Shown: positions 5,350 to 55,945 of the stretch, one piece after another
How positions within the stretch are numbered: the first letter of the stretch is position 1
Layout of the letters: each line of letters begins with the position of its first letter
Assembly (NCBI GenBank): GCA_023898485.1
Contig: CP060225.1
Span: forward strand, 548,848 to 612,847
Direction of reading: 5' to 3'
Length of the DNA: 64,000 nucleotides
From: Candidatus Peribacteria bacterium
GTDB lineage: Bacteria; Patescibacteriota; Gracilibacteria; Absconditabacterales; Absconditicoccaceae
Program-made: the position numbers and the translations under genes
Notes under the pieces: generated by a model
Seen by the model: the letters and a program-made list of their open reading frames with translations, nothing else
Told to the model about the DNA's origin: nothing
Databases searched by the model: none

Positions 5350-5375
5350 AAGAAAAGAGGCGTACGCCTCTTCTA
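5350..5375. terminator. Bidirectional hairpin between the convergent PrgI-like gene and recA
   Basis: aaaagaggcg-ta-cgcctctt perfect stem, flanked by A-run and T-run. It overlaps the recA stop codon. Confidence 0.6.
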
Positions 5376-6440
5376 TTCAGTATCTGATTCGTCTTCCATT
5401 TTGCCTGTTTCGAGGACATTCATAGCGTCATCGTCGAGGACCTGCTCACCCATGCGCATTTTCTTGATAGCGGTCTGGATTTGTTTTTCGAGTTTTTCAC
5501 GAAGTTTGGGGTCGGATGCAAGTGCTTCGATGAGATTGGCTTTGCCTTGGACTTTGTGATCACCGATACTGTAGTATGCTCCAGCACGATCGATTGCCTT
5601 GAGGAGAATACCCGCTTCGATGACATCAAGTTCTTTATCATATCACACGTTTCGTGCGACAGGAAGTTCAGCTCTCTTAAACGGAGGTGCGATCTTATTT
5701 TTGACGACTTTGACTTTGATATTGTAGCCGACTTGTTCTTTGCCTTCAGTGATAGCTTCACCTTTGCGGACTTCGATACGCTGTGATGCGAAGAATTTGA
5801 GTGCGTGTCCACCGGTTGTTGTTTCTGGATTGCCATACAAGACACCGATTTTCATACGGATCTGGTTGATGAAGATAACGGTTGTCCCTGTCTTGGCAAG
5901 GATAGAAGTGAGCTTTCTGAGTCACTGAGACATCATACGAGCTTGGAGACCGACAAAACTATCGCCCATCTCTCCCTCGACTTCTGCACGAGGCACAAGC
6001 GCTGCGACAGAGTCTACGACGATGAGTTTGACTGCTCCCGTCTTCGCGAGTTCTTGAGTGATAGAGAGCGCTTGCTCTCCATAGTCTGGCTGAGCGAGTA
6101 ATAAGTTGTCAGTATCTACACCGAGTGTGCGAGCAAATGCTGGATCCAATGCGTGTTCTGCATCGACAAAGGCACATGTTTCACCACGTTTTTGGAGTTC
6201 TGCGATAGCTTGGAGCGTGATCAGTGTCTTACCAGAAGATTCAGGACCATAGATCTCGACGACACGACCCTCGGGCATACCGCCTCCCAAGATCATGTCT
6301 AAGACGTAAGAACCCGTGTGGAAGGTGTTGACCTGACCAACGTTGGCACTGTCGCCCATACGCATGATAGCTCCTTTTCCAAATTGTTTTTCAATGTTTC
6401 ATAGCGCCTCTTTGAGGACTTTGTCTTTGCCGTGTGACAT
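5373..6440 (-). CDS. recA: Recombinase RecA
   Basis: Track fragments 5922-6365 and 5643-5855 are in one frame. The joined translation reads [13 protein letters not shown](G)[16 protein letters not shown]...GPESSGKTL...ARMMSQ(G)LRKLTSIL...[23 protein letters not shown].... ATG at 6438-6440, TAG at 5373-5375, 355 aa. Confidence 0.95.
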
Positions 6441-6482
6441 TCGTTTTTATAGTGAGAAGAGTATAAAACTTCGCAAAGGATT

Positions 6483-6564
6483 ATGGAGGGTAATGAAGGA
6501 TCATAAAGGGTGATAAAGGATGTGTTTCCTCTATAAACCTTTCTTAACCTTTATATACCTCTAT
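6483..6564. promoter_or_regulatory. Inverted array of 10-bp-phased heptamers (4x ATrrAGG, then 4x CCTyTAT) upstream of recA
   Basis: ATGGAGG 6483, ATGAAGG 6493, ATAAAGG 6503, ATAAAGG 6513, then an 8-bp spacer, then CCTCTAT 6528, CCTTTCT 6538, CCTTTAT 6548, CCTCTAT 6558. The same architecture recurs at 31052-31136. Confidence 0.55.
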
Positions 6565-6642
6565 CGCCCTCGATTTTTATCAGAAAAATGGAAAAATGCA
6601 AGACCAAGGGAGTCAGACCCGAACCCTTTTTGGAGAAATGTG

Positions 6643-9600
6643 ATGAGAGTCAGTATACTGGGGGAAGTATTTTATGTAGTTTTTCTCAAACTTATGAATC
6701 CCACTCTCGATAGTTATGAGGCAAAAGTATCACAAGCTGAGCAACTTGCAAAAAATGAAGCTATAGCAACTAATAAAAAACTAAAGAAGGAGCTCTTCAC
6801 TCTTACGCAAGAATTGGAGGAAGAGGAAAAGATTCTTGCAAAAAGTATCCTTGAAAAAAGCGGGAAAGATATATTACAACAATTGCAACAAAGAAAACTA
6901 GAAGCTATCAAGGATATTGATTTTTCTGATATCAAAGAAGAGCTTACTAATCTCAAGCATACTACTACTGAAACAGTAGATAATGGTATCGTGAGTACTA
7001 CTACGACGACAGAGGTGATAGATGGAGATGACGTAACTGAAGAAAAAAAAGGATCCTGGGATAAGACAAAGGAAAGGCGAAACAAGATGTCTACTGGAGG
7101 CAAAGTTTTGACTAGTGGAATCGTTGTGTGATGAGCAATATTATTATGGAAATGAGTAAAAAGTATCTTCTCCTCCAAAGAAGAGGACACGGAAAAAAAG
7201 AAAAGTTTTCGAGAAAGTACGACAGGAAAAATTGTAAAGTGGACTGGTATTGGTTCTGCTGCCTACTATGTTAGTCATGGTCTTGCTACAGGAAAACGAT
7301 GACTATGAGATCTTCTTGACTGGGATAATAAAAATGCAGATTGAAATGACTCACCAGAAAATCAGGTAGAAAGCTATGAAGAGCTACAAAAAGAAAATCC
7401 AGAAAAAGTAGAAAAATACGAACTACTATGAGATAATGTAGATAAGCTCTATACTAAAATGTATGGACCAGAACTTCGTGCAGGACGAGAAGATGATGCT
7501 AATATGAGTACTTTAGCACAAAAAGTAAGCAACGGAGAAAGGCAATACACATGAGTGGTACCATTCTGTCTTGATAATCAATTTAAAAATACCGATAGAC
7601 TTTTATCCGAACGTTGACAAATTGAAGCTGCCGTTTCAAATAAACTAAAATGAATGCGGGAATATCTGAAAGGACGATGAGAGGATGGTCTTAAATTTTT
7701 TGCACAGACAGCACTGAGTGGATTACCCTCATGGACAAAATATCTCACATGAACATGAACATGGGAAGAGAAAATAGGTAAGTGGATAGTGGACTATGGC
7801 TCTGAAGCAGAGACTAATATGGCATTTTTCTTTAGACAAAGCATGAGGGTGCAGACATACCTCTTACAGAAGAAAGATCAGCTTATGCTTCAGATCGCGT
7901 ATGAAAAAACTGGAATTAAAGATGAAGATAAACTACGGAATAAGATTCATGATGAAGAACGGTTTGCAAATAATATTGCTCAAGATAGTCGCTATGTTAA
8001 TTTTTCCAATGGGACCATAGCTGAAGCAACAGCTATACTGAAGCAAGAAAGCATGCTCGATGATACTATTGGAGAAACGCTACAATGAAGTGTAGATGCT
8101 TTGGATAGGCAAAGAGCAACTATTCTTATAGAAAAAAATAAGAAAGATATTGTAGTGAGAGGAAAAGAATCTCTTACTGCAAATGGCAAACTCTCTGAAG
8201 AAGAAACACAAGATACTATTACTGCTTGCGACAATGTCATAAAAGATATTGATGATGAGATTATTGATGTCGTAGAGGAAAGTGCTCATAATATCTATGG
8301 TGATCTTCTCAATACTGATGATGCCGCTATGAGAAAATATTTTGATGGTAGTAAGTTTCGCCCACTTTTTGATGAAGCTAAAAATACTATCAATGAAGCT
8401 AAAGGAAAACTAAGAGCTGGTAAACTTACATCAAAACAAACTAGAGATCTACTTGATAGCCTTAATAATATGATGGCACTCAAAAAAGAAGCTATTATAG
8501 GAAGAGAAACGATACAAAAAGAAATAGATGAAAATGGGAATATTATATATAGGATACCTTCATTCTTACAGTGATCACTAAAAAACTTCTTTGTAACTGG
8601 CTTACGAAAAGCTGGATCGTGAATAGTTCATGGTGATATGGAAGAGATAATAGGGGGATTAGAAAATATCTGATCTGGATGGCTAGGTACATGAATTACA
8701 ATTACTATTATTGGGTGAGTAATCTGGATCAAAAGTTGATTTAAAAATGCAACTCTTATAAAAACTGGAATTAAGATGAATACTCTCCCCATTTACTGGC
8801 TATGAAAACAAGCTAATAAATTCGAAGTAGTTCGTAATCTTGGGAATAAGGTTAAATATGGATCTACCTCACGACTGCACATGCAAACATTCTGGAGAGG
8901 TGAAGCGTGACCAGATAAACTTATGAAACTGCTCAGAACAGGTGATATCAATATCGAAATGGCAGAATCTATCATTCGCAAGAAATGTAAACCATGACGA
9001 TGAATAAGTGGTAATCAAGCATGGATGGATTCATTCAATATTAGTAGAACAATGAAAGCATCAGAAATTAATTTTAGAGAGAAAATACTTGTAGAACTTA
9101 TAGGAGAGCAAGATGAATACTGGAAATCACTCAGTGAATCAGCTCATTATGATGAAATACTTAAAAACCTTGATGACCCTAAGATCATGGATCAAATACT
9201 CAACAAAAAACCTGTAACAAGTATTATGCAAGAGATCAATAAGATCAATGCAGTGGTCGCTCCTGCTCTATCTCCATCCATTTCTACGGCCCCCAAAACC
9301 CTCTGAGTCTGATTAGAAGTTATCAGTGCCAACGGCAAAAGAGGAAAAATCATAGCAGAAATAAATGGACAATTCCAAGTAAGGTATGAAGGCGGAGGAA
9401 CAATTCTCACAAAGGCTGAAACCCTTACTCCTCTAGATCATACTACATTATGAATTGGGTCGGATGTCATCAGTACGAACGGTAAAAGGGGTAGGATAAT
9501 AGCAGAGATCAATGGACAATTTCAAGTAAAATATGAAAATGGAGGTACAATCCTCACAAAAGCTGAGACACTTACAAATATCACTGGCTTTACTGACAAT

Positions 9601-10059
9601 CAAAGAACTCTTACCACTACTGTAATAAATGAGATCGGTGATCTCAATCGTATTACCTATGGTGATGGAGCTGCAAAAGCACAAAGAATTGCAAGCATCA
9701 AAAAACTTGAATCCTTTACGAAAGAAATCTCATCACTCGATGATGCTGCTATCAAGGGGATTAGATCTCTTGCTGATATGGGAATGAAACCAAGATATGT
9801 AGCAAGCATGATTGAAACAGGTGTAGATATAAAATGATTTATAAAAACACTCGAAGCACAAAAAGGTCTTAACTCGCTTGATGACGTAGTGAGACAATCT
9901 CTCAAAATAAATGGCGGAGAAGCATTTTTGAAACAATTTGATAACGTAAATTTTAGCAAGTTTGCTCATATATTTGATGAAACCGTAGAAGTATGAAAGA
10001 TAGCTAAAATCGGTTCTCATCTCGACGAATTTGTCAAAGTACTGAAAGCAATCACATAA
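6643..10059 (+). CDS. Giant hypothetical protein A (about 1138 aa), coiled-coil rich with Gly-rich hydrophobic segments
   Basis: Track ORFs 6520-7131, 7789-8088, 8101-8574 and 9025-9306 share one frame. My hand translation between them meets only TGA. The first TAA is at 10057-10059. Start at 6643 has GGAGA 6 nt upstream. ATG 6694 is an alternative start. Confidence 0.7.
9319..9576 (+). repeat. Intragenic tandem duplication of a 37-aa module (period 147 nt) in giant protein A
   Basis: VISANGKRGKIIAEINGQFQVRYEGGGTILTKAETLT at 9319-9429 versus VISTNGKRGRIIAEINGQFQVKYENGGTILTKAETLT at 9466-9576. Confidence 0.8.
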
Positions 10060-10080
10060 TTTATCTGACCACCTCACTTC

Positions 10081-13000
10081 ATGCCACTCAAACACACCGA
10101 AGATATAAAGATTCAGAAAGCCAAAGAAGATTTGGCAGAACAGTATGTTGCTGAATTTAAGGATGAACTCACTGGTCTCAAGAAGATGGGTATTTCTTTG
10201 GTGGAGAAAAAAATGAAAGAGCTTCTCCTTCAAGACACAGAACTTACTGATAATAAAAAAGATTATAACCTGACTCGATGGCAAGAAACGCTTGCTTCGT
10301 TATCGCCTACACTCACTGATAAAGTCATCAATTTCCTCAAAGAAAAACAAAAACTCCTTCTCAAAGTCCAAACACAACAACAACTAGAAGCGCTTAAGCA
10401 GTGAATCGATCCAACAACAATCCCTGAAGAACAAGAAAGTGAATCAAATAATGCGCCACAAACCCCAGAAAATAATAATAATCCAGAAGATAATATCTCT
10501 CCTGAGGAGTCTCCTGACAATGTCCATATCGTCAATGCAGAAAATCCCATGATATGAGTAGGAGTATTGGGTTCAGGCATGGTCGGATGGGCAGGACAAG
10601 AAAGACGAGCTCATAATAAACTCTGATCTCGTGCTGAAAAACTTACAAACGCCATTAGTCAGAAAGAGCTCAAAACGTCGCTTCAAGAAATTCAGAAAAC
10701 CCTCGAAGCGCAAACACACAATCCCAAACTACTAAAATTCCAAAAGGATAATATCAAGAAAACACTCAAAGTATTCCAAGAAGCTGAAAAAAATAGTAAC
10801 GCTGTTGCTGATCTCAAGCTCCGAAAACAACTCGCCAAGACGAACAAAGTGTCTGGTGCACTTTTTGAAAAAATGAGCGCAAAAGAAATACAAGCTCTCA
10901 GCAAAAGTCTTGCCACTGTCGTCGATGATACTGCCTTTTTAGAGCAGATAGCGAAAACTTCTGATCCGACAGCCATCAAGTCCCTCCTCCAATCCAAAGG
11001 AATCACTACTATGACCGATACGATGGTCGAGTCGCTTGCGCGCATTGATAACGTGGATGATGTCGCATCACTGACGCGTGTCTTGAGTAAATGATCAGAA
11101 ATCAGTTCTCTTGCAAAAGCTGCTAAATTTCTTCCACTCATTGATGTAGCTGCATTATGATATGATCTCTACAATTGGAATCATGATAACAACCAGGCTG
11201 ATGCAATGAGAAATGCAGTAAGAAAAGACATAGCCCACAATCGTGCTAACGCCCATCTTGCTGCATGAGTAGCAAATGCTCTCTTAGGTGCTAGTGCCCT
11301 CTTGGCTTCCGGACCTCCATGATGGGTTGCTGTGGCAGGGGTTGCAGTCATAGAGTGATGAAGAGTAGCTGCAGATAAGCTCTACTACGATGTGCAAGAC
11401 TTTTATGGTCAAGATGAGGTAGATTTTGCTACACAGGAAGAGATACAAGTAGATCAAGCAATCCTTGACGCAGTGGCTGGAGGCGGACGAGACAACCTCT
11501 CTCTCAATGAGGGTGTCTGTGAGTTTTTTGGAGGTATCGATAAGAGCAAAAAGATGAATACCATACAGGATGCACTCTGGGCAAAGATATTTTTGGATGA
11601 AAAAGATGACTTCCCACTCGTCTATGAATATATGCAGATCCAGGCTTATAAAGCTAATCTAGAAAGCTATACTCCCGAACAACAGCAAAGCATCCATCAG
11701 CAAGCAAAAGCTTTTGAGTCTAAACAGACAGATTATGAAGCACAAAGAAAAAATCTCGATACTATTGTAGCTACGAGAATGGAATATATTACACCATTTC
11801 TCCCTGGTGGTAATCGCTTTGCCGAATTTACTCAGAATATCAAAAATAGTAAGGGTCTTGCTGCCATCAATACTATCGTAGCTCAGAGCAAGACATATCT
11901 CGAAATGAAGGCAGATCCCAACACACAAGCACAAACAGTAGAAGCATATCTTACAGAAAAAGAAACAGCGCTACAGCAAGAAAATCCTCATATATTCGGA
12001 GAGTTGAAAAAGATAGCAGACAATAACCCTCAGCAATATGATGAAATTATCCATCATACTCGTGCATTTAGCATGATAGATGAGGGTACCTATCGTGCAG
12101 AAAATACCACACTCTTCACTACGGCGGACTATCTCATCCGTTGGGATGACTGGTATCAGGCAAACCATCCCCATAATCGTACAACACTTACCATAGAAAA
12201 CGACTACAGTGGTATTGAAAAAACACTTACAGACTTATCACAATGAAAATCACTGCAATTTACTGTGACACCCTTCACACAAGAAGAATTATCCTTCTGA
12301 CTTGATAGTATAAGCAATAACAGTCAGGAGCAATATGCTGATGGTCTGTGACACAATGTATTGTATCGCTTCCTCCGTGAATTCTGTCATTATACTGGCC
12401 ACAATGACATGATAGAAATGCAACAGTTTGCTGAGGATGATGGTGGTGAAGCAAGAAATGATGCTCGTGGCATCTATTATGATCCAGCGGAAAAACAATG
12501 GTTCATCAATGACGATAATGCAAGAGATTGGCCCGTTAATCTCCATGATATGGAAACTATGACGCCTGAAGAGCGATGAAAAAAATACTTCTTCGGTAAT
12601 CCAGGCACAGGTAAAAAAGCTATCATAGATGGTGACACAGAAACAATAGATGCAGAAAAAACTGATGAATTTATCAACACCTTCATACGTATTATAGGAG
12701 AGGAAAAAGCACAAAGAACGCCAGAACACCAGAAAAAGGTGTCTGATGAAATCGTTTCTTATATCAAAAATAATGCTCAGACCAACTGATACATCCTCCT
12801 CCCTCATCATCTCATAGCTGCTGGTGTTCGTGCAGGCTTGGGTGAGATGCAATATTGGTTTTTCTCTCTCGACGCACAGTGAAAAATACTAGCTGTCACT
12901 GATGCTGCGCATATTTCATCACCACTACGTTTAGAAAACGTTGCCAAACAATACAACAGCACAAACTGAAATATACAATCTTTGCATAACTCCCAAGAAA

Positions 13001-13476
13001 AACAACAAGCAATCAGTCAGATAGATACTATGATACAAGAAATCAGCAAAACCATGGGAGAGTTGCAGCTTTCTGAAAGAGGCAAAATCTCCTATAATCC
13101 GGAAACGTGAGAATTATCATCATGGTGAACCACTATCACCTGTCTCTATGATACCAAGAAAAAAACACGAAATCTTGGTGATGCATTTCCTATTGTGTAC
13201 AAAAATATGAAAGATGCACTGTGGATAGCAAACCTTACCAATCGTATCAGGGCGTACAAAAAAGAACATGGAGATGCGGTATTTCAGCGATGATATATGG
13301 GTGTCAAAGATGGTCTGTATAACACTGCTACCACACCCGATACACAAATCCTTGATCCTGATACGATAGATTCACATTATGCTGCTAGCTTCTCCAAAAA
13401 ATGGAGAGAAACTATGATAGACTACTATAATAATTTGCCTGCAAAAGTTGACAAAGCAATATCTGAAAATGTATAA
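10081..13476 (+). CDS. Giant hypothetical protein B (1131 aa) with central hydrophobic Gly/Ala-rich segments
   Basis: ATG 10081 lies 21 nt after the stop of A, in the same frame. Track ORFs 10081-10404, 10849-11094, 11392-12246 and 12361-12579 are linked only by TGA. TAA at 13474-13476. Hydrophobic stretches include (G)VGVLGSGMVGWAG and AHLAA(G)VANALLGASALLASGPP(G)WVAVAGVAVIE. Confidence 0.7.
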
Positions 13477-18608: not shown

Positions 18609-19400
18609 TTATCGATGATACTGCTCCACATATGTCTCAAAATGCTTTATGCTATCATCATACGCATTGAAAAGGAAAGGTTGCACATCACGTATCAGAT
18701 ATCCTTTATCTTGTGACTGGATGATATCTATCAGATATGCAATAGTAGACTGACGATCGTGCCATCATAATAACTGATCTAATATTTCATGATTTGGATG
18801 AATGCCCTTATCCATCAAAAATTTCAGATCGAAATAATCTCTTCCTTTTGCTCTTCTGCGCTGTCCGATAGTATATATTTTCATTGCCATAATGACTTCC
18901 AATGGCGCAACCTGTATTAATGCATTGGTACCAAAGGTGGTAAGAGGAATAATCATAGGCTCATATTGCAACTGTTGATCATGTGTATCTACTTTAATGA
19001 CAAGTTTTTCTTGCACTTCTTCTCTCGTAGTTGGAGCAAGTCCATAATTTGTTAGAATATTTGATAGTTTGATAGTAGCATGATACGCTTGCTTATGTGT
19101 ATATTTTACCTCTGTTTGCAATCACAAGAGTGCTAGCTGATCACAGAGATGTGCTATGATCACTTGAAACCTCTCATAACTAATACCTGTGTTATCAAAA
19201 TCAAGATCTTCAGAAAATCTTGGCAATCCATGCACTATCCTCAGCGATGTCCCACCGATAAAGATCAGCTCCCCTGCATCCGGTCATCTAAACAGATACT
19301 GCAATATCACACACTGCAAATATTCCCTCAAAATATCCCTCCTATGTATTTGAATAGGCTCAGGATAGACAGACAAGAGGCTGTCTCGACTATACAACAT
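18609..19400 (-). CDS. AbiEii/AbiGii-family nucleotidyltransferase toxin (type IV TA)
   Basis: MLYSRDSLL...RRDILREYLQCVILQYLFR(G)PDAGELIFIGGTSLRIVHGLPRFSEDLDFDN.... The track ORF 18765-19121 is extended on both sides through 3 TGA codons. 263 aa. Confidence 0.8.
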
Positions 19401-20013
19401 CCTCATAGATATATGCTATAAAACGATTTACTCTTTCTCTTAATTTTTGGTTGGAATAACGCTGACCGTAATACTCTAACTTCTCTCTATCGATCACCAT
19501 ACGTACCTCATCACTATCTATCCTCCACTCATCAAAAGCATCAGCATCATCCATCTCATGATGATAATAGAGATAATCGATGATTGCCTTTTCTGGTTCT
19601 GCCATCAGTATCGTGCGATCATCATAATGCAATAATTCATATCACCGGAGATACTGACTCGTGATGCTATGATAGTAGAAAATACTCACATCACTCACAA
19701 ACGACTGCGTCTTACGTGTCGTGATACTCGTCACTGATGGAACTATCTCTGGGATGAAGTTGTAGTAGCGTAGGGCAGTCTCCAAACTCACATATGATGG
19801 ATGATAGATATGATTGGCTATCTCTCGAAGATCTTCTTCTTGCACAAGACGATCGCGGATGGCATACCATCATCTTCTGATCTGCACTATCTTGGCAGTC
19901 TGCTGTCGATAGTAGAGATGTTGCGATGTTAGCGATGGGAAAAACTTCCTCACCTGTTGCGATGAAAAATACGTCTGTGTAGGGAAAATTTCTAACAACT
20001 CTTGTCGCTTCAT
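19390..20013 (-). CDS. AbiEi-family antitoxin/transcriptional regulator
   Basis: MKRQELLEIFPTQTYFSSQQVRKFF...RR(G)WYAIRD...YVSLETALRYYNFIPE.... Two track ORFs (19642-19845 and 19390-19632) are joined. Its 3' end overlaps the toxin start by 11 nt. Confidence 0.75.
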
Positions 20014-20027
20014 TTCTCTAATATATA

Positions 20028-20071
20028 AAATATAATGAAAAATTTATATATAATAGAAATATAATGAAAAA
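20028..20071. promoter_or_regulatory. Two copies of the 15-mer AAATATAATGAAAAA (29-bp spacing) upstream of abiEi
   Basis: Copies at 20028-20042 and 20057-20071, 15-60 nt upstream of the abiEi start codon. Candidate autoregulatory operator/promoter. Confidence 0.4.
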
Positions 20072-20145: not shown

Positions 20146-23100
20146 TTATTTCTCTTCTACAATTAATAAAATCTTTTTCTTTACATGATCTACTTTATTT
20201 TTTAGTATTTTTCGTGGTGTTTGAGGCGGAAATAATATTTCTTTTTCTTTTGCTGAATGGTCACTTGTACTATACTTTTGGACATCTACTCATGAATGCG
20301 AATTTGTAATAACTATTTGAACTGAGTACTGATCATTAATATTTTGACTTACTTCATTATAGTCTATATCTAAATCTAAAATTATCTCATGTTGTTTATC
20401 TGATTTATTCGTGTGTCAGTCCGTTTGTGGCAAGTTATTTTTAAAATAACTTCACAGACTTTCCCTAACATCCCTAGTTGTTGAAAAATATCCATCATCC
20501 TTATAGGTATCACCCCTTTTCAGATTTACTATATATTGAATTAAATTTTCATCTTCTGTATTAAATCACCTATATAAAAGTTTTTTTTGGTTATATTTTT
20601 CAAATCTATTTTCCTTAAATCATTTCCTTAAAAAATATTCTCATAACACTGAAACCTTAGGATCATTCACATCTGGATTTTCAATCAATTTAGTTATCTT
20701 TCATCTCGATATATGATTATATCACTTATAATGATCTTGAGAATACAAGTTCAATGCCCACTGATAATAGTCTTTGTCTGAAAAAAAAGTTGTTTGAGGA
20801 CCAGAGAAAGATTCTAATCTAACACCCCCTGAGAGTATTTTTTTAAATATATACTTTTTTTGATGATCATTTAATGAATTTATATATTGAATATACTCCC
20901 GACTTATTTTGTTTCTATTTGGTACAAGCGCATTAACCTTCTCCCGGATATGATGGTTTTCTGAATTTTTATAATCAGTAAATGTTTCAAAAAATTCTTC
21001 AAAAAATGTGGCATTTGTACCATTAATGAATAGCTCGTCTGAATTATTTCTCGTTCAAAATATCGATTTTAAATCGTTGTATGATCATGCATCGTAATAA
21101 TAATAAGAAAGTTGCAATCAATATATTTCCTGCACAGGGATTCATATTTCTTTACTCAATTGCGCTATTTCTTTTTGATAAGCAAGAAATTCTTCTTGAT
21201 CCATTTTTCACTGTGCGTGTTTACCTATACTATCATTTGTCAGTAAAAATTTCGCAATCTTTTCTTCTTTTCAAGTAATACCTATGGCATTTAACAAATC
21301 ACTTACTATTATCTTTGCGATATTATGTTGTTTATCTTTTGATAGTCACATTTTGATTGCAATCGCCTTAGGTATATCATGTATGAGTAATATCTTTCAT
21401 ATTAAATCAATATATGACCTAGGTAACCTGTTGAATGATTTTCCAAACTCCTTCATAACTAGTTCAGTATGACCTCTTAATATTTCATGTCATGGATCGT
21501 CTACACCTGTTGGGAGATCAAAAATATCTTTGAACTTAAAAAAGTCATAATTTTCTTTATTAAATATTGCATCCTTTATTTCTAGAAATCACATTCATTT
21601 ATATTTCTCTAACTGATTTTTGAAATAATTATATTCAAAATCATCGTTAATTTTAGTTTTATAATGCATATTTTTTATCATACTAGGAATATCCCACTTC
21701 CCACAAAATCCACCTTCCAACAAAAATCTTCTGACTCCCTCGTCGGGTATGGTGGTTGTAAGCAGCTTAACTTTCGCTTTGAGTTCAGCTGGAATGAGTT
21801 TGCCGAGCTCTCCTGGGAGGAGATGGGTGCCGATGATGGTCTGGATCTGTGCATCAGTGAGATCTAGTTTTTGACCAGTCATGGTCTCGTATTGGGTCTT
21901 GATGCGGTCTCTGATCTGTTGGAGATCTGTGGTACTATCCATCCATCTACTGTTTTCTCTCGCCTGCTTACTATCAAATCAGAAGCGAGAGGATTTTCAG
22001 AAGTAGTCATTAAACTTCGCTGTCTCCGGAGAGAATGATCAGTCATTATTGATGGACTTAATATCAGTATCGTGAAATACAACTATCTCGTTTCTCTGTC
22101 ATTTTGTAGCAATCACTCCATCAAATCAATTACCTTTTAAGAATTCATCATAATAAGAGTCGTTCTTTATTCTTATTAATAGCGATAAACATTTTTCTAG
22201 ACTATAGTCTCATCATTCTTTAATATTTTTTGCAATGATATAATCCTGACTTCATGTATCGCCCTGTTGAATAATTTTACTTACTATATATTCATTGATT
22301 TCAGTAGAATATAGATTGAATCCATTTACTTGATCGAAGCCTTTATATGGATTCCTCACATTAAGAAACATAGCATACTGAACACTAGCATCTTCTGTTA
22401 AATGGAATTGTAATATAATATTATGTGTATCTGGTGTAAAGTAAAATCATTTACCAAAAGCATTATTTTTTGATTTTTTAATATCAAAATAATTAAATTG
22501 CTTGGAGGAGAGGTGATACACCATCAACGGCTCCCCATTTTCATCAACTACCTTACTTACCTGTGTCTTATCAGCACTAGTTCGATCACCAAATCGATTT
22601 GTAAACTCTGGTGTCCTGACCTGTAGCCATGTCTTGAGAGCTTGTTGTTCGCTAAATCAGTCAGCTTTCATCTTTGCAAAGAGTTGACTTGGTTTTTTCT
22701 CACCATTGACTTCTACCAATATACTTTGAATAGATCCATCTGGTTTGAGAGTAATATTTCCTCAGAATAGTTCATCTTGTAGAATAGCTTCTAAAGCTTG
22801 AGGGTTTATAATTCCTTTCAATAATTCTGGATGAGATTCGATAATGACTTGTGCCTGTTTACTCATTTTTTCATGTGTAATCTTCTCGTTTGGTGATTGT
22901 TTGGTTTCTAGCCCACTCTTATTATGTCTCATATGTTCTAGCATCTGAAGATCCTCCTCATATGATTTTACTAGGGCTTGGAGAGTTTTTTTTTCTTCTG
23001 TTCCTATTCATGGTTTTTGGAGTGTTTCTTGTGCTAGTTTCTTCGATTGCTCTCCTGACTGTTTGAGCTTCTGATAGTCAACTGTCTTGAGTCAAGTGAT

Positions 23101-50501: not shown

Positions 50502-51296
50502 TTAATGGCTTTCTTCTATCTCCTTGATCTGATCACGGATGACAGCTGCTTTTTCGAATTCTCGTGCTTCGATCGCTGCATCAAGTTGTCCTTTCAGATC
50601 TTTCATGATGATTTCCTTTTCCTTTTTGGTCATACGTTTGAGACGCTTTTGTTTGCCACGAGTGAGAGAGGCAAAGTCTTGCTCGAGCAGTTCTTCATCC
50701 GTTTTGACGGTGTGCAAATCTTTGGCAAGGGAGACGGCTGTTTTTGGTGTGATACCATGTGCTTGGTTGAACGCATCTTGTACTCCTCTCCTACGATAGG
50801 TCTCTCGGAGCGCCATGGTCATCGCCTCCGTCATCCTGTCTGCATAGAGGATCACTTCTCCAGCGGTATGTCTCGCCGCACGTCCGATCGTCTGTACCAG
50901 CGCAGTGGTGGAACGCAAGAAGCCCTCTTGGTCTGCATCCAATATTCCTATCAGTGATACTTCAGGGAGGTCGATACCTTCTCTCAAAAGATTGACTCAG
51001 ACCAAAATATCGATCACGCCTGTCTTGAGCTTTTTGATAATCTCCCGACGTTCGAAAGTGTCGATCTCACTGTGCAGGTAAAAAGCCCTATATCCTTTGG
51101 AAATGAGGAAATTCGTCACTTCTTCAGCAGACTTTTTGGTCAATGTGATGAGGAGCACTCTCCCACCATCGCCCTTGTGCTGATCGATCTTGCCAAAAAG
51201 ATGCTCCAAGAAAGCGGGCTGCTGTCCACTCGGGAGCTTGGTAAGCTGGAGATACTGGTCAAGATTGGGGAGAGACATAGATCTATCGTCAAACAA
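50502..51296 (-). CDS. uvrB: UvrB C-terminal fragment only (helicase domain 2 plus UVR domain); N-terminal ~410 aa absent
   Basis: RVLLITLTKKSAEEVTNFLISKGYRAFYLHSEIDTFERREIIKKLKTGVIDILV(G)VNLLREGIDLPEVSLIGILDADQEGFLRS...TIGRAARH...EFEKAAVIRDQIKEIE. An in-frame TAA at 51327-51329 caps the frame upstream. Confidence 0.7.
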
Positions 51297-53784: not shown

Positions 53785-55704
53785 CTACGTCACTTTTTTG
53801 TTCAAAATGGCATCATAAATTTCTGGATATATTTTATTACCCCAAAATTTCTTTTTGACAGGATCTATCATACTCTCATCTATTGATACAGACACATTAT
53901 GATTATTATAGTTATGATCCGTATAGTAAATAATAATTCTATTCTCACTGGGGCTCTGTAAGATATTAGTAATATAACGGAGACTATAATTTATCTTTTC
54001 TATATCGATCTCAGAACCCACAGATTTAGCATACGTAATGATTGAATCAATCATTTGTGGTCCGTTGTCACGTAAGGTCTTCGTAGCAGCTCTAAGATTG
54101 TCCTCTCGCTTTTCTTGTTTCTTCTCCTTTAGTAACTTAGCTGATTTCTCATTCATCAATTTGAGAATACACTTCTTAAGTTGATCATTATCAACAGCAT
54201 TCCCATCCCATATTTTCGATATACTAACAGTTCACAGACTTTTCCCATTGAGCTTTATACTTATTGTTGCCCTATTCAAATATGACATTTTATAGTCAAA
54301 ATTTTTTTCATCAAGTTGACGATTATGCCCTAAAATAACATCATATTCCTCCACTAATACACTGAAAGAGTCCTTATACTTTTCTTTAAAAAGGAATTTC
54401 TGCTCCTGTAGAGAGTTCATGAAATCAAGCTTTTGACCGGGCTCCAAATCCCTTCCTACAAAAACGTTATTATTTGCCATCTCTTTAGTCTTGGTTTTTT
54501 CCATCCACAGTGGCTTCTGCGTCTGTGATTTTCCCTGGTTGGGAAGAGTCAAAGCTACAGGAATATTGTTCTTTTTAGAATTATTTTCTATCTCTTTAGT
54601 CTTGGTTTTTTCCATCCACAGTGGCTTCTGCGTCTGTGATTTTCCCTGGTTGGGAAGAGTCAAAGCTACAGGAATATTGTTCTTTTTAGAATTATTTTCT
54701 ATCTCTTTAGTCTTGGTTTTTTCCATCCACAGTGGCTTCTGCGTCTGTGATTTTCCCTGGTTGGGAAGAGTCAAAGCTACAGGAATATTGTTCTTTTTAG
54801 AATTATTTTCTATCTCTTTAGTCTTGGTTTTTTCCATCCACAGTGGCTTCTGCGTCTGTGATTTTCCCTGGTTGGGAAGAGTCAAAGCTACAGGAATATT
54901 GTTCTTTTTAGAATTATTTTCTATCTCTTTAGTCTTGGTTTTTTCCATCCACAGTGGCTTCTGCGTCTGTGATTTTCCCTGGTTGGGAAGAGTCAAAGCT
55001 ACAGGAATATTGTTCTTTTTAGAATTATTTTCTATCTCTTTAGTCTTGGTTTTTTCCATCCACAGTGGCTTCTGCGTCTGTGATTTTCCCTGGTTGGGAA
55101 GAGTCAAAGCTACAGGAATATTGTTCTTTTTAGAATTATCTTTTCACATAACACTATTGTCTATCGGTATATGTTTTATACCTAGGAGTTTACTAATCAC
55201 TTGTTGACCCGCCCATCCATCATCAAGATCAAGACTATTATCTTTCTCAAAGTTACGCACTGCTTGCTTCGTATCCTTACCATACAGACCATCAATTGCA
55301 CCAGAAAAACTGTTATTCTTGGCTAACATATATTGCACTGCGATCGTCAGTGCCGCACCACCATTGCCATACACTTCACCAAAACTTTTGCCGCTATCAA
55401 ACTGAGCTTTCGCATCACCCAAGATAGATTTCATCGTACTTTCTACCTTAGCCTCATCAACTTTTGAAAGTTGTTCTGATAATTTACCTACCAATACTGT
55501 AGTCTGTAAGTTAGTGGTTTCTTTTTTTGTTTCGTCAGTGACTTTTTGCTCCTCCTTTTGTTCTGTGATAGCTGTTGCTTCCTCTTTCTGTACCAAAGCA
55601 TTAATATGAGGATTGGCAAGAAGCTGCTCTTTGAGCCATTTCATATCATTTTTATGATTTGATCAGTCACGATCAATCACTTCACTGAATTGTGGATTGG
55701 ACAT
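53785..55704 (-). CDS. Peptidoglycan-binding-domain protein with six identical 37-aa repeats (639 aa)
   Basis: Track ORFs 55144-55644, 54232-55107 and 53785-54159 share one frame and are joined by TGA. PG_binding_1-like segment: TIAVQYMLAKNNSFSGAIDGLYGKDTKQAVRNFEKDNSLDLDDGWAGQQVISKLLG. Confidence 0.7.
54466..55138. repeat. Perfect tandem repeat, 111-bp unit x ~6, in frame within the CDS
   Basis: Unit starts at 54481, 54592, 54703, 54814, 54925 and 55036. All copies are identical by eye. Each encodes TLPNQGKSQTQKPLWMEKTKTKEIENNSKKNNIPVAL. Confidence 0.9.
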
Positions 55705-55945
55705 TAGAAAAGAAAAATACACTAAAAACTACCGCTAGTATATTCTCTTGGTGTGGTTTTGTCAAAAAAAGCACAACAAAATTCCTTCTCTCTTTATTGT
55801 AGCATATATCACTCTCACCCCAAGAGTCAAATATCAATATACCATATCCTCTTGCAAAAGAATATTTCTGTCTTTACTCTCGACGCTAGTCATGAATGTT
55901 TTGTGTTTCGTTCGTGGATATGCTTTTATTACTATGATAGATATA

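Follow-up and report, generated by a model that had tools for sequence, protein, structure and literature searches.

Two phased decamer arrays

The window analysed here, a 64-kb stretch of contig CP060225.1, carries recA and a divergent giant reading frame, giant gene A, and the intergenic region between them holds a large inverted array of short repeats (array 1). The initial annotation of this region had described eight heptamers in exact 10-bp phase, arranged with dyad-like symmetry around an 8-bp centre and lying 43 bp from the recA start (6440), and both the layout and that distance are borne out by our analysis (Table 1). One of the eight, CCTTTCT at 6538, differs from the CCTyTAT pattern by a single mismatch, and allowing mismatches in the search extended the array on both sides by one weaker unit (GCAAAGG, 6473; CCTCGAT, 6568), giving a full extent of 5+5 decamers (6473-6574) whose arms converge on the centre. 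Each decamer comprises a core, A-t-r-R-A-G-G, and three unconstrained bases, in exact 10-bp phase. The distance to giant gene A, previously put at about 80 bp, is revised to 130 bp; the start of this gene is most likely ATG 6694, because the resulting MNPTLD... matches the MNPELL... of a homologue.

Array 1 is real and not a product of chance. A two-unit pattern allowing up to two mismatches matched 20 sites in the 64-kb window, against 5.4 ± 2.4 in shuffled sequence, and 15 of these 20 fell at just two loci, 8 in array 1 and 7 in a second array (array 2). Runs of at least three phased AGG occurred at period 10 only, and at these two arrays only; periods 7-9 and 11-13 yielded none in the window, and the phased-AGG search never returned a single arm on its own. 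Tandem Repeats Finder (TRF) called every arm of both arrays separately, with the left arm of array 1 also readable as 2.3 copies of a 20-mer.

Array 2 (31052-31146) shares the core and the 5+5 convergent layout of array 1, has a centre of a single base (31099), and includes a perfect duplication, AAGGGAGGGT in three copies, that forms a 30-bp perfect repeat. Over the 20 units of both arrays the consensus is A (18/20), t, r, R (20/20), A (20/20), G (19/20), G (20/20) and three free bases. Spacer positions 1 and 3 have a pairwise unit identity of 0.18-0.31, where random expectation is 0.257, whereas A1 reaches 0.8 and A5-G6-G7 about 1.0, both within each array and between the arrays. Conservation within the unit is therefore bipartite, with A1 and R4-A5-G6-G7 conserved and positions 2-3 loose. 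In array 1, AGG is invariant in 10/10 units beside fully randomised spacers that are neither conserved nor complementary. Had duplicated units simply decayed neutrally, each of the ten positions would have been eroded to a similar degree; the cores are therefore under sequence-specific constraint.

The geometry combines a fixed period with a variable centre. The 10-nt period runs without indel across 28 units (10 in each array and 8 in an orthologue of array 2, described below), and the arms are always paired with equal unit numbers (5+5, 5+5 and 4+4). The centre, by comparison, measures 8, 1 and 13 nt in array 1, array 2 and the orthologue, and the AGG-to-CCT distance across it 11, 14 (or 4) and 16; such a variable centre fits a hairpin and argues against one rigid dyad-symmetric complex. 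Recent duplications of 10 and 20 nt are visible in the arrays, and the two arms of array 2 have diverged to different subtypes (AGGGAGG and ATAGAGG), losing sense-strand pairs while keeping the RAGG phase.

Table 1. Positions of the two arrays and of the features associated with them (window coordinates unless a related locus is named).
Feature	Position	Strand	Remarks
Array 1, left arm	6473..6519	+	cores GCAAAGG (6473), ATGGAGG (6483), ATGAAGG (6493), ATAAAGG (6503), ATAAAGG (6513)
Array 1, centre ATGTGTTT	6520..6527	.	loop of predicted hairpin
Array 1, right arm	6528..6574	-	ATAGAGG, AGAAAGG, ATAAAGG, ATAGAGG, ATCGAGG; on the plus strand CCTCTAT (6528), CCTTTCT (6538), CCTTTAT (6548), CCTCTAT (6558), CCTCGAT (6568)
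Array 2, left arm	31052..31098	+	GAGAAGG, AGGGAGG x3, ATAAAGG; cores at 31052 to 31092; three identical decamers
Array 2, right arm	31100..31146	-	ATAGAAG, ATAGAGG, ATAGAGG, ATAAAGG, AACAAGG (TRF and pattern search); on the plus strand CTTCTAT, CCTCTAT, CCTCTAT, CCTTTAT, CCTTGTT
recA	5373..6440	-	355 aa; three in-frame TGA read as Gly
Proximal recA leader GTTTTATACTCTTCTCACTATAAAAACGA	6441..6469	-	28/29 identical to L252; contains TATACT -10-like box
Predicted distal recA promoter, TTGCAT-16-TAAAAA	6574..6601	-	-10 overlaps outermost array 1 unit by one base
Conserved 66-nt block	6575..6640	.	64/66 identical to L252; back-to-back -35 elements of recA and gene A
Giant gene A	6694..10059	+	1121 aa from ATG 6694; no Pfam match; 29 in-frame TGA
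Membrane-protein gene	30416..31051	-	211 aa, unknown family; ATG directly abuts array 2
Predicted array 2 promoter, TTGATA-16-TATAAC	31144..31171	-	-10 overlaps outermost array 2 unit; kept in L247 and L249
GAAC-N4-GTTC box in related loci	L242 9891-9902; L245 9865-9876; L265 9840-9851; L266 6179-6190		immediately upstream of recA -35

Promoter context and fate in related genomes

Long reading frames in the window appear only when TGA is taken as a sense codon, and TGA is read as glycine because RecA then runs ...KEAL[TGA]NIEKQFGKG; one such recA codon lies at ~6400. RecA finds its best matches in Absconditabacteria, SR1 and Gracilibacteria, at up to 85% identity, and by these sequence criteria the organism is an uncultured Absconditabacteria/Gracilibacteria-type bacterium within the CPR (candidate phyla radiation). 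Inspection by eye of about 30 gene starts revealed no clear Shine-Dalgarno motif.

A promoter-like pattern, cTTGCAa-16/17-TAnnAT with a -10 that is often TATACT, recurs upstream of genes in the window. A loose version of it matches 36 times; 18 of these matches fall within the non-coding 15% of the window, and 12 are found upstream of a start codon on the same strand at a distance of up to 200 nt. The predicted distal recA promoter and the predicted array 2 promoter (Table 1) both belong to this set. At recA, the -35 of the predicted distal promoter (CTTGCAt/a) is kept in 7/7 related loci. Because the predicted -10 overlaps the outermost array unit at both loci, transcription is predicted to start just past the AGG of that unit. 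Array 2 fills the whole leader from the predicted -10 to the ATG at 31051, and a conserved 33-nt AU-rich stretch lies between array 1 and the recA ATG. Sigma-70 and terminator consensus scans called neither a promoter nor a terminator inside either array, and array 1 moreover lies between divergent genes. Both arrays occupy the interval between a predicted promoter and its minus-strand gene. The initial annotation placed array 1 between recA and giant gene A, where it does lie; since the predicted -10 of giant gene A (TATACT, 6654-6659) sits to the right of the array, however, array 1 falls inside the leader of the distal-promoter recA transcript and not between divergent promoters. Two further sites may matter here: the TATACT box in the proximal recA leader may be a second, proximal promoter, and a palindrome in the conserved block, CCAAGGG-N13-CCCTTTTTGG (~6604-6635), could be the real operator of this clade.

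We compared the recA leader across seven related loci (L241, L242, L245, L252, L265, L266 and L267), whose RecA proteins are 85% (L241, L252), 77% (L242), 74% (L245, L266), 73% (L265) and 72% (L267) identical to that of the window. The initial annotation had named absence of the array upstream of recA in close relatives as an observation that would refute it, and array 1 is indeed absent from this position in 7/7; the five more distant loci (L242, L245, L265, L266 and L267) lack a phased AGG/CCT array both at recA and throughout their 13-21 kb. In L252, an unrelated 76-bp segment takes the place of array 1 between 97%-identical flanks (64/66 on the promoter side, 28/29 on the recA side), even though the recA coding DNA is only 76% identical, and in L241 only the 13-bp GATAGGGGATAGAAATG is found there. 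The segment directly after the distal recA -10 is consequently hypervariable (~100-bp array, 76 bp or 13 bp) between strongly constrained flanks. The array is most likely not a conserved recA operator. A purine-rich start of the recA leader (GATAGG.., AGGAAAGGG) is common to L241, L245 and L265. The L252 insert (1390-1467) is itself a repeat-built imperfect palindrome with a period and core unlike those of array 1, consisting of the contiguous heptads TTGTAGC TTGTTAC TTATTAC TCGCAAC and a 5' half that is partly their complement; a search for a second copy of it found none.

The same loci differ in what lies upstream of the recA -35. Each of L242, L245, L265 and L266 has a single GAAC-N4-GTTC (GAACAATCGTTC or GAACAAGCGTTC), which we take to be the Gram-positive-type LexA box (Table 1), with one match per locus across L242-246, L265 and L266, and L267 encodes a Peptidase_S24 (LexA-like) protein two genes from recA. 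The 64-kb window, L241 and L252 contain no match to this box, and at the corresponding place (window 6602-6640) all three carry a different, 97%-conserved block. By this comparison, the clade has lost an SOS operator that is still present at recA in its relatives.

The neighbours of array 2 are rpmE (L31, 31227-31487, minus strand), the membrane-protein gene, holB and recX; a hairpin followed by a T run at ~31174-31197 resembles an rpmE terminator by eye, although the terminator scan did not call it. The start of the membrane-protein gene is backed by a homologue in L247 that is 83% identical and aligns over its full length, and further homologues are 65% (L249) and 33% (L250 and L251) identical. 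L247 retains the rpmE terminator and the promoter as in the window, followed by a leader with AGG at 715, 725 and 745 (735 reads ATG), CCT at 761, 771, 781 and 791, and the gene ATG at 799. This leader is a 4+4 array in 10-nt phase, with changed unit sequences (AAGAAGG, CCTTCTT, CCTCTTT) and a fresh 20-nt duplication (a 20-mer in two copies). The 65-nt leader of L249 is purine-rich and then pyrimidine-rich, partly homologous as judged by eye and not by an alignment, with unclear phasing, and in L250 and L251 no leader precedes the gene. On this by-eye homology, the leaders become progressively more repetitive from L249 through L247 to the window. The phased orthologue in L247, set against the leaders of L249 and of L250 and L251, indicates that the element at the array 2 locus is old and grew in place, keeping its phase and AGG/CCT core while the rest changed. 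An independent Logan assembly (run SRR12358675) is 100% identical to the window over 18 kb that include array 2; array 1 lies outside its coverage.

A proposed leader stem-loop weighed against its alternatives

We tentatively interpret the array as a lineage-specific stem-loop in the 5' leader of the recA mRNA, a reading that we rank first and regard as possible rather than probable. The DNA would serve as the template of a long, imperfect, zipper-like stem-loop forming the 5' end of the recA transcript that starts at the distal promoter. In recA-sense RNA, five purine decamers (..A-t-r-R-A-G-G) would precede an 8-nt loop and five pyrimidine decamers (C-C-U-Y-y-a-U..), and base-pairing of the cores is predicted to give short helices, anchored by G-C pairs, with symmetric 3x3 internal loops between them (~-27 kcal/mol). 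Such an element would be this lineage's version of a leader hairpin that recurs at the recA position in related bacteria, having expanded where it stands as strand slippage duplicated 10- or 20-nt units on both strands; such a history would account for both the strict 10-nt period and the matching unit numbers of the arms. Array 2 would be a second copy occupying the entire leader of the membrane-protein gene. The 5'-terminal stem-loop may set mRNA stability or processing and, in array 2, where it would reach the AUG, may limit ribosome access in an organism without Shine-Dalgarno sequences. The layout of the arrays, their departure from chance, the existence of a second copy, the selection acting on the cores, the placement beside conserved promoter-like sites and the occurrence across relatives are shown by the sequence; from these we infer promoter activity, transcription of the array, folding of the RNA in vivo and an effect on stability or translation.

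Folding calculations and the relatives supply the evidence for a leader stem-loop. Array 1 folds at -27.2 kcal/mol (z = -2.8), with 0/200 shuffles as stable. The recA leader of L265, unrelated in sequence, holds a 100-nt hairpin of -28.7 kcal/mol (z = -3.3, again 0/200 shuffles as stable) that is 9 kcal/mol more stable in sense than in antisense, a bias that amounts to a strand-specific RNA signature. The 76-nt insert of L252 also folds into one hairpin (-21.4 kcal/mol sense, -17.4 antisense). The predicted promoter placement at both loci and the absence of the LexA box from the clade provide supporting context, as do the consistent pairing of arms around a variable centre and the precedent of recA in Acinetobacter baumannii discussed below. 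Signs of stepwise growth at the site, namely the purine-rich recA leader start shared by relatives, the increasingly repetitive array 2 leaders and the recent duplications, also speak for it.

Several observations weigh against this interpretation. The arrays fold only moderately better than shuffles (z -1.4 to -2.8), and the antisense folds as well as or better than the sense (-30.1/-27.2, -32/-24 and -29.1/-26.7 kcal/mol for array 1, array 2 and the L247 array), so the arrays themselves contain no strand-specific RNA signal. True hairpin partners match about as well as permuted ones (27/35 versus a mean of 26.8; 24/35 versus 22.4), and we detected no covariation between partner units. The bipartite conservation of the unit is closer to what one would expect of a recognition site than of a helix running evenly over 7 bp, and an exact 10-nt period free of indels is what B-DNA phasing would demand. 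The leaders of L242, L245 and L266 have no stable fold and L241 has almost nothing at the site, which indicates that the hairpin is dispensable. Finally, all promoters are predicted, and the proximal TATACT box could yield recA transcripts that exclude the array. We nevertheless prefer the leader stem-loop because the comparative evidence (position, topology, unrelated sequence and one sense-biased case) is slightly stronger than the pattern evidence. Searches for described RNAs gave no lead: Rfam 15, run on the whole window, returned nothing at gathering score and, under permissive filters, only chance-level microRNA and small nucleolar RNA matches, and a tRNA search found nothing.

The main rival, which we consider somewhat unlikely, is that the array instead functions as a double-stranded DNA operator, in which each decamer binds one subunit of a small sequence-specific protein oligomerising along one face of the helix and the two arms bind oppositely oriented oligomer arrays, as MraZ, BldC, ParR/omega or OmpR-type regulators do. 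Bound from the -10 over the first 100 bp, such a protein would prevent open complex formation, promoter escape or elongation, and recA would belong with the membrane-protein gene to a small regulon specific to this lineage. The period without indels, the random spacers beside near-invariant A5-G6-G7 within and between arrays, and the lack of partner covariation all suit this explanation, under which a single motif on either strand accounts for both arms and two RNA motifs are unneeded. It likewise fits the AGG/CCT core having been retained in L247 although the rest of the units changed, and the other 10-bp-phased arrays at promoters in the window (GTAGCA/TGTCAC/TGCTAC at recX, AT-rich at abiEi). 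Cooperative binding to variable numbers of short phased repeats is moreover known, for BldC (PMC5859096) and, through studies cited in a passage of PMC5138195, for MraZ. A DNA operator is harder to reconcile with the absence of the array from recA in all seven relatives, including unrelated sequence between nearly identical flanks in L252, and with AGG-to-CCT distances that give the arms no fixed helical register. The phased arrays known so far mostly consist of direct repeats that cover the promoter or lie upstream of it, unlike the balanced inverted arrays that fill the leaders here, and an arm never occurs singly. No transcription-factor gene lies near either array or among the window proteins scanned: small open reading frames in gaps and Pfam scans of window proteins gave RecX and an AbiEi-like protein and no plausible binder. 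The cooperative multimeric DNA-binding protein envisaged by the initial annotation is kept alive by the core constraint and weakened by the unfixed arm distance and the absence in relatives.

That the arrays are functionless by-products is quite improbable. Under this explanation, slippage or template switching would have produced a quasi-palindromic minisatellite in a tolerant leader, or a selfish palindrome of the type of a repetitive extragenic palindrome (REP) or MITE (miniature inverted-repeat transposable element) would have decayed there. The hypervariability of the recA leader site across three related genomes, the fresh perfect duplications in array 2 and L247, and the fact that L241 does well without the element are all compatible with it. 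So are genome-specific decamer arrays, often convergent and between convergent genes, found in Bacteroidota and other phyla among the matches listed from our collection scans. Neutral decay, by contrast, would not have left AGG invariant while the spacers were randomised, and array 2 has persisted at an orthologous site with phase and core intact. A MITE origin is rejected: comparison of filled and 'empty' recA sites revealed no target-site duplication, the L252 insert is single, and the window contains no transposase or REP-associated tyrosine transposase (RAYT) gene.

The scans behind those look-alikes were loose (RAGG x5 in a genome collection, AKRRAGG x4 in metagenomes), and the matches listed were mostly simple tandem repeats and eukaryotic-looking microsatellites. 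No close relative stood among the matches listed from either scan, and TGA recoding did not discriminate relatives among the scan loci. Convergent decamer arrays with a 7-8-nt core and 2-3 free bases occurred, among the matches listed, in Bacteroidota (L033, L111, L005, L075, L085, L096 and L114), mostly between convergent gene ends or between co-directional genes. At least six scan loci among those listed have an AGG arm followed by a CCT arm, against one with the opposite order; because the search pattern imposed the RAGG core and the 10-bp spacing, only the convergent pairing and its bias count as findings. These could not be shown to be the same kind of element as the window arrays. Arrays in Bacteroidota metagenome-assembled genomes (L033 4385-4490 and L111 7461-7584; also L049 and L106) have cores such as CAAGAGGA, and one Alistipes genome of this kind carries a TTAAGGG decamer family at two loci beside other tandem arrays. 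A viral collection yielded nothing but (ATAAAGGTGG)n arrays, of which four lie in contigs of very low GC; these were set aside as unrelated to the window arrays. In the IMG/VR contigs L253, L259, L261 and L264, one or two of which have a giant-virus label, a hairpin CCACCTTT..AAAGGTGG is followed by 4-9 copies of ATAAAGGTGG.

Both arrays, the L247 orthologue and the Bacteroidota look-alikes might together represent an undescribed class of element, an idea that we also consider quite improbable. Such an element would be a self-expanding 2xn purine-core array in strict 10-nt phase with the purine arm first, recognised by a trans-acting factor dedicated to it (either an oligomeric protein that binds DNA or RNA, or the ribosomal anti-Shine-Dalgarno tail) in lineages without Shine-Dalgarno initiation, and would replace LexA control of recA in this clade.

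Phase variation, in which slipped-strand mispairing would add or remove decamers and so switch the expression of recA, the giant-protein gene or the envelope-protein gene, is very improbable: the units are tandem, with 30 bp of perfect repeat in array 2, their number differs between lineages (5+5 versus 4+4) and the adjoining genes encode a giant protein and a membrane protein, yet most units are imperfect, which suppresses slippage, the array lies neither between -35 and -10 nor in a reading frame and so has no obvious switching effect, and the one independent assembly overlapping the window (array 2 only) is identical. Apart from its position beside recA and its repeated nature, nothing recommends array 1 as a conserved SOS/LexA-type operator, a replication origin or an iteron array, and we give this a negligible probability, in agreement with the initial annotation, which had recognised no LexA/SOS box, DnaA box or iteron. 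Its sequence and position differ from the GAAC-N4-GTTC box found at the recA -35 of relatives, and the array is not conserved at recA; DnaA boxes (TTATCCACA-like 9-mers) numbered 20 one-mismatch matches versus 20.5 expected, with none near either array and no cluster; GC skew inflects neither at 6.5 kb nor at 31 kb; the units recur every 10 bp and not every 17-22 bp, in inverted arms beside recA, rpmE, holB and recX; and we noticed no rep gene among the window proteins scanned or in the L248 gene table. Three structural ideas were also rejected: that the units are tandem -10 elements (TATAGA-GG, TATAAA-GG), since the key -7 T is present in only 5/20 units; a G-quadruplex, possible only for the left arm of array 2; and H-DNA, because the arms are inverted and not mirror repeats.

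If the leader hairpin is real, a CPR bacterium without its relatives' LexA operator would control recA after transcription, and duplication of a 10-nt helix-forming unit on both strands would offer a simple evolutionary route to lengthening and tuning a regulatory stem-loop. If the arrays act as DNA, they would mark where an undescribed oligomerising regulator binds, in a lineage whose recognisable transcription factors are very few. Either way, A-N2-RAGG in at least three copies at a 10-bp period, in convergent arms directly after a -10, provides a search handle for regulatory elements of Absconditabacteria and Gracilibacteria that have not been cultured. These results are descriptive and local in scope, and any function of the arrays is a prediction.

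Other features of the window and comparison with known systems

Pfam gave no match for giant genes A and B (6694-13476), whose synteny with recA is kept in L245 and L265. A second family of 10-bp-phased repeats, here hexamers, occurs at 29435-29489 and 32984-33027. The recX hexamer array has GTAGCA twice and then TGTCAC/TGCTAC alternating four times, includes a perfect 20-mer in two copies and overlaps the -35 of the predicted recX promoter (TTGCTA-16-TATACT); a similar GTAGCAC/GTTACAA/GTGACAA run lies upstream of a lipoprotein-like gene (31617-32834). An AT-rich array of 10-bp period (20020-20069, ~5 copies of AATATAATGA) occupies the promoter region of an AbiEi-like antitoxin gene (19390-20013), which was assigned by eye from its N-terminal sequence, without a Pfam match, and which an AbiEii-like gene, also assigned by eye, adjoins (18609-19406). 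Elsewhere, a 111-bp unit is repeated six times at 99% identity (54469-55139) within a minus-strand gene (53785-55722), encoding six near-identical 37-aa repeats of a 645-aa protein, and a 1971-aa protein with 50 in-frame TGA and an ART-PolyVal (ADP-ribosyltransferase) domain has the look of a polymorphic toxin (20146-26061). The 264-aa product of 50502-51296 (minus strand) resembles only the C-terminal helicase and UVR part of UvrB, and the N-terminal part was not found in frame upstream; the gene may be a split or degraded uvrB.

We found nothing relevant in the literature on leaders with decamer or 10-bp repeats, and we therefore set the arrays beside several better-known systems. MraZ boxes consist of three or four direct repeats with a 10-bp period, each a short motif and a short free spacer, upstream of mraZ and the dcw operon. 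The arrays share the short conserved motif, the free spacer and the 10-bp period, with five units per arm. What differs is their layout, two balanced arms of opposite orientation, and their place, the leaders of recA and a membrane-protein gene. The arrays are not upstream of an mraZ-rsmH-ftsL (dcw) operon, and a scan of window proteins revealed no mraZ gene. MraZ binding has been studied by Eraso 2014 and Fisunov 2016, as cited in a passage of PMC5138195. BldC, a very small actinobacterial protein, forms cooperative head-to-tail multimers on a variable number of short direct repeats, with a 9-bp motif, AATTXXXX(C), and sites whose length varies between promoters (PMC5859096). Unlike a BldC operator, the arrays have an A-t-r-R-A-G-G core, a 10-bp period and an inverted second arm, and no BldC-like winged-helix candidate was found in the window. 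Omega heptad operators and the ParR-parC system use direct and inverted units of 7-11 bp that are coated by ribbon-helix-helix dimers in plasmid partition and copy control; the heptads there are contiguous (7-bp period) or the iterons 11 bp long, whereas the arrays have a 10-bp period in chromosomal leaders.

REP units are imperfect palindromes of 20-40 nt that lack decamer phasing, occur in hundreds of copies and depend on RAYT. Like REP and bacterial interspersed mosaic elements, the arrays are species-specific intergenic inverted repeats, present or absent between relatives with conserved flanks and foldable in a transcript; within the 64-kb window they number two, have only the core in common and are not accompanied by a RAYT gene. 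The cssA 5' untranslated region (5' UTR) of Neisseria meningitidis is an RNA thermosensor in which two 8-nt tandem repeats sequester the ribosome-binding site and repeat copy number tunes expression. The arrays, too, are short tandem leader repeats predicted to form a weak, meltable hairpin, but they comprise 2x5 decamers in leaders without a Shine-Dalgarno sequence, and only array 2 reaches the AUG.

Leaders that stabilise an mRNA include the 5' hairpins of the ompA and ermC type. According to a passage in PMC7509114, which cites Ching et al. 2017, a 5'-UTR stem-loop stabilises the recA mRNA in Acinetobacter baumannii, and the same source mentions an mRNA-stabilising 5'-UTR stem-loop in vacA of Helicobacter pylori. 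The array hairpin, itself a prediction, is distinguished from these by its phased decamers with 3x3 internal loops and by being absent or different in close relatives. It resembles them in that array 1 would place a long hairpin a few nucleotides from the predicted 5' end of an mRNA, on recA, in a clade that lacks the LexA operator.

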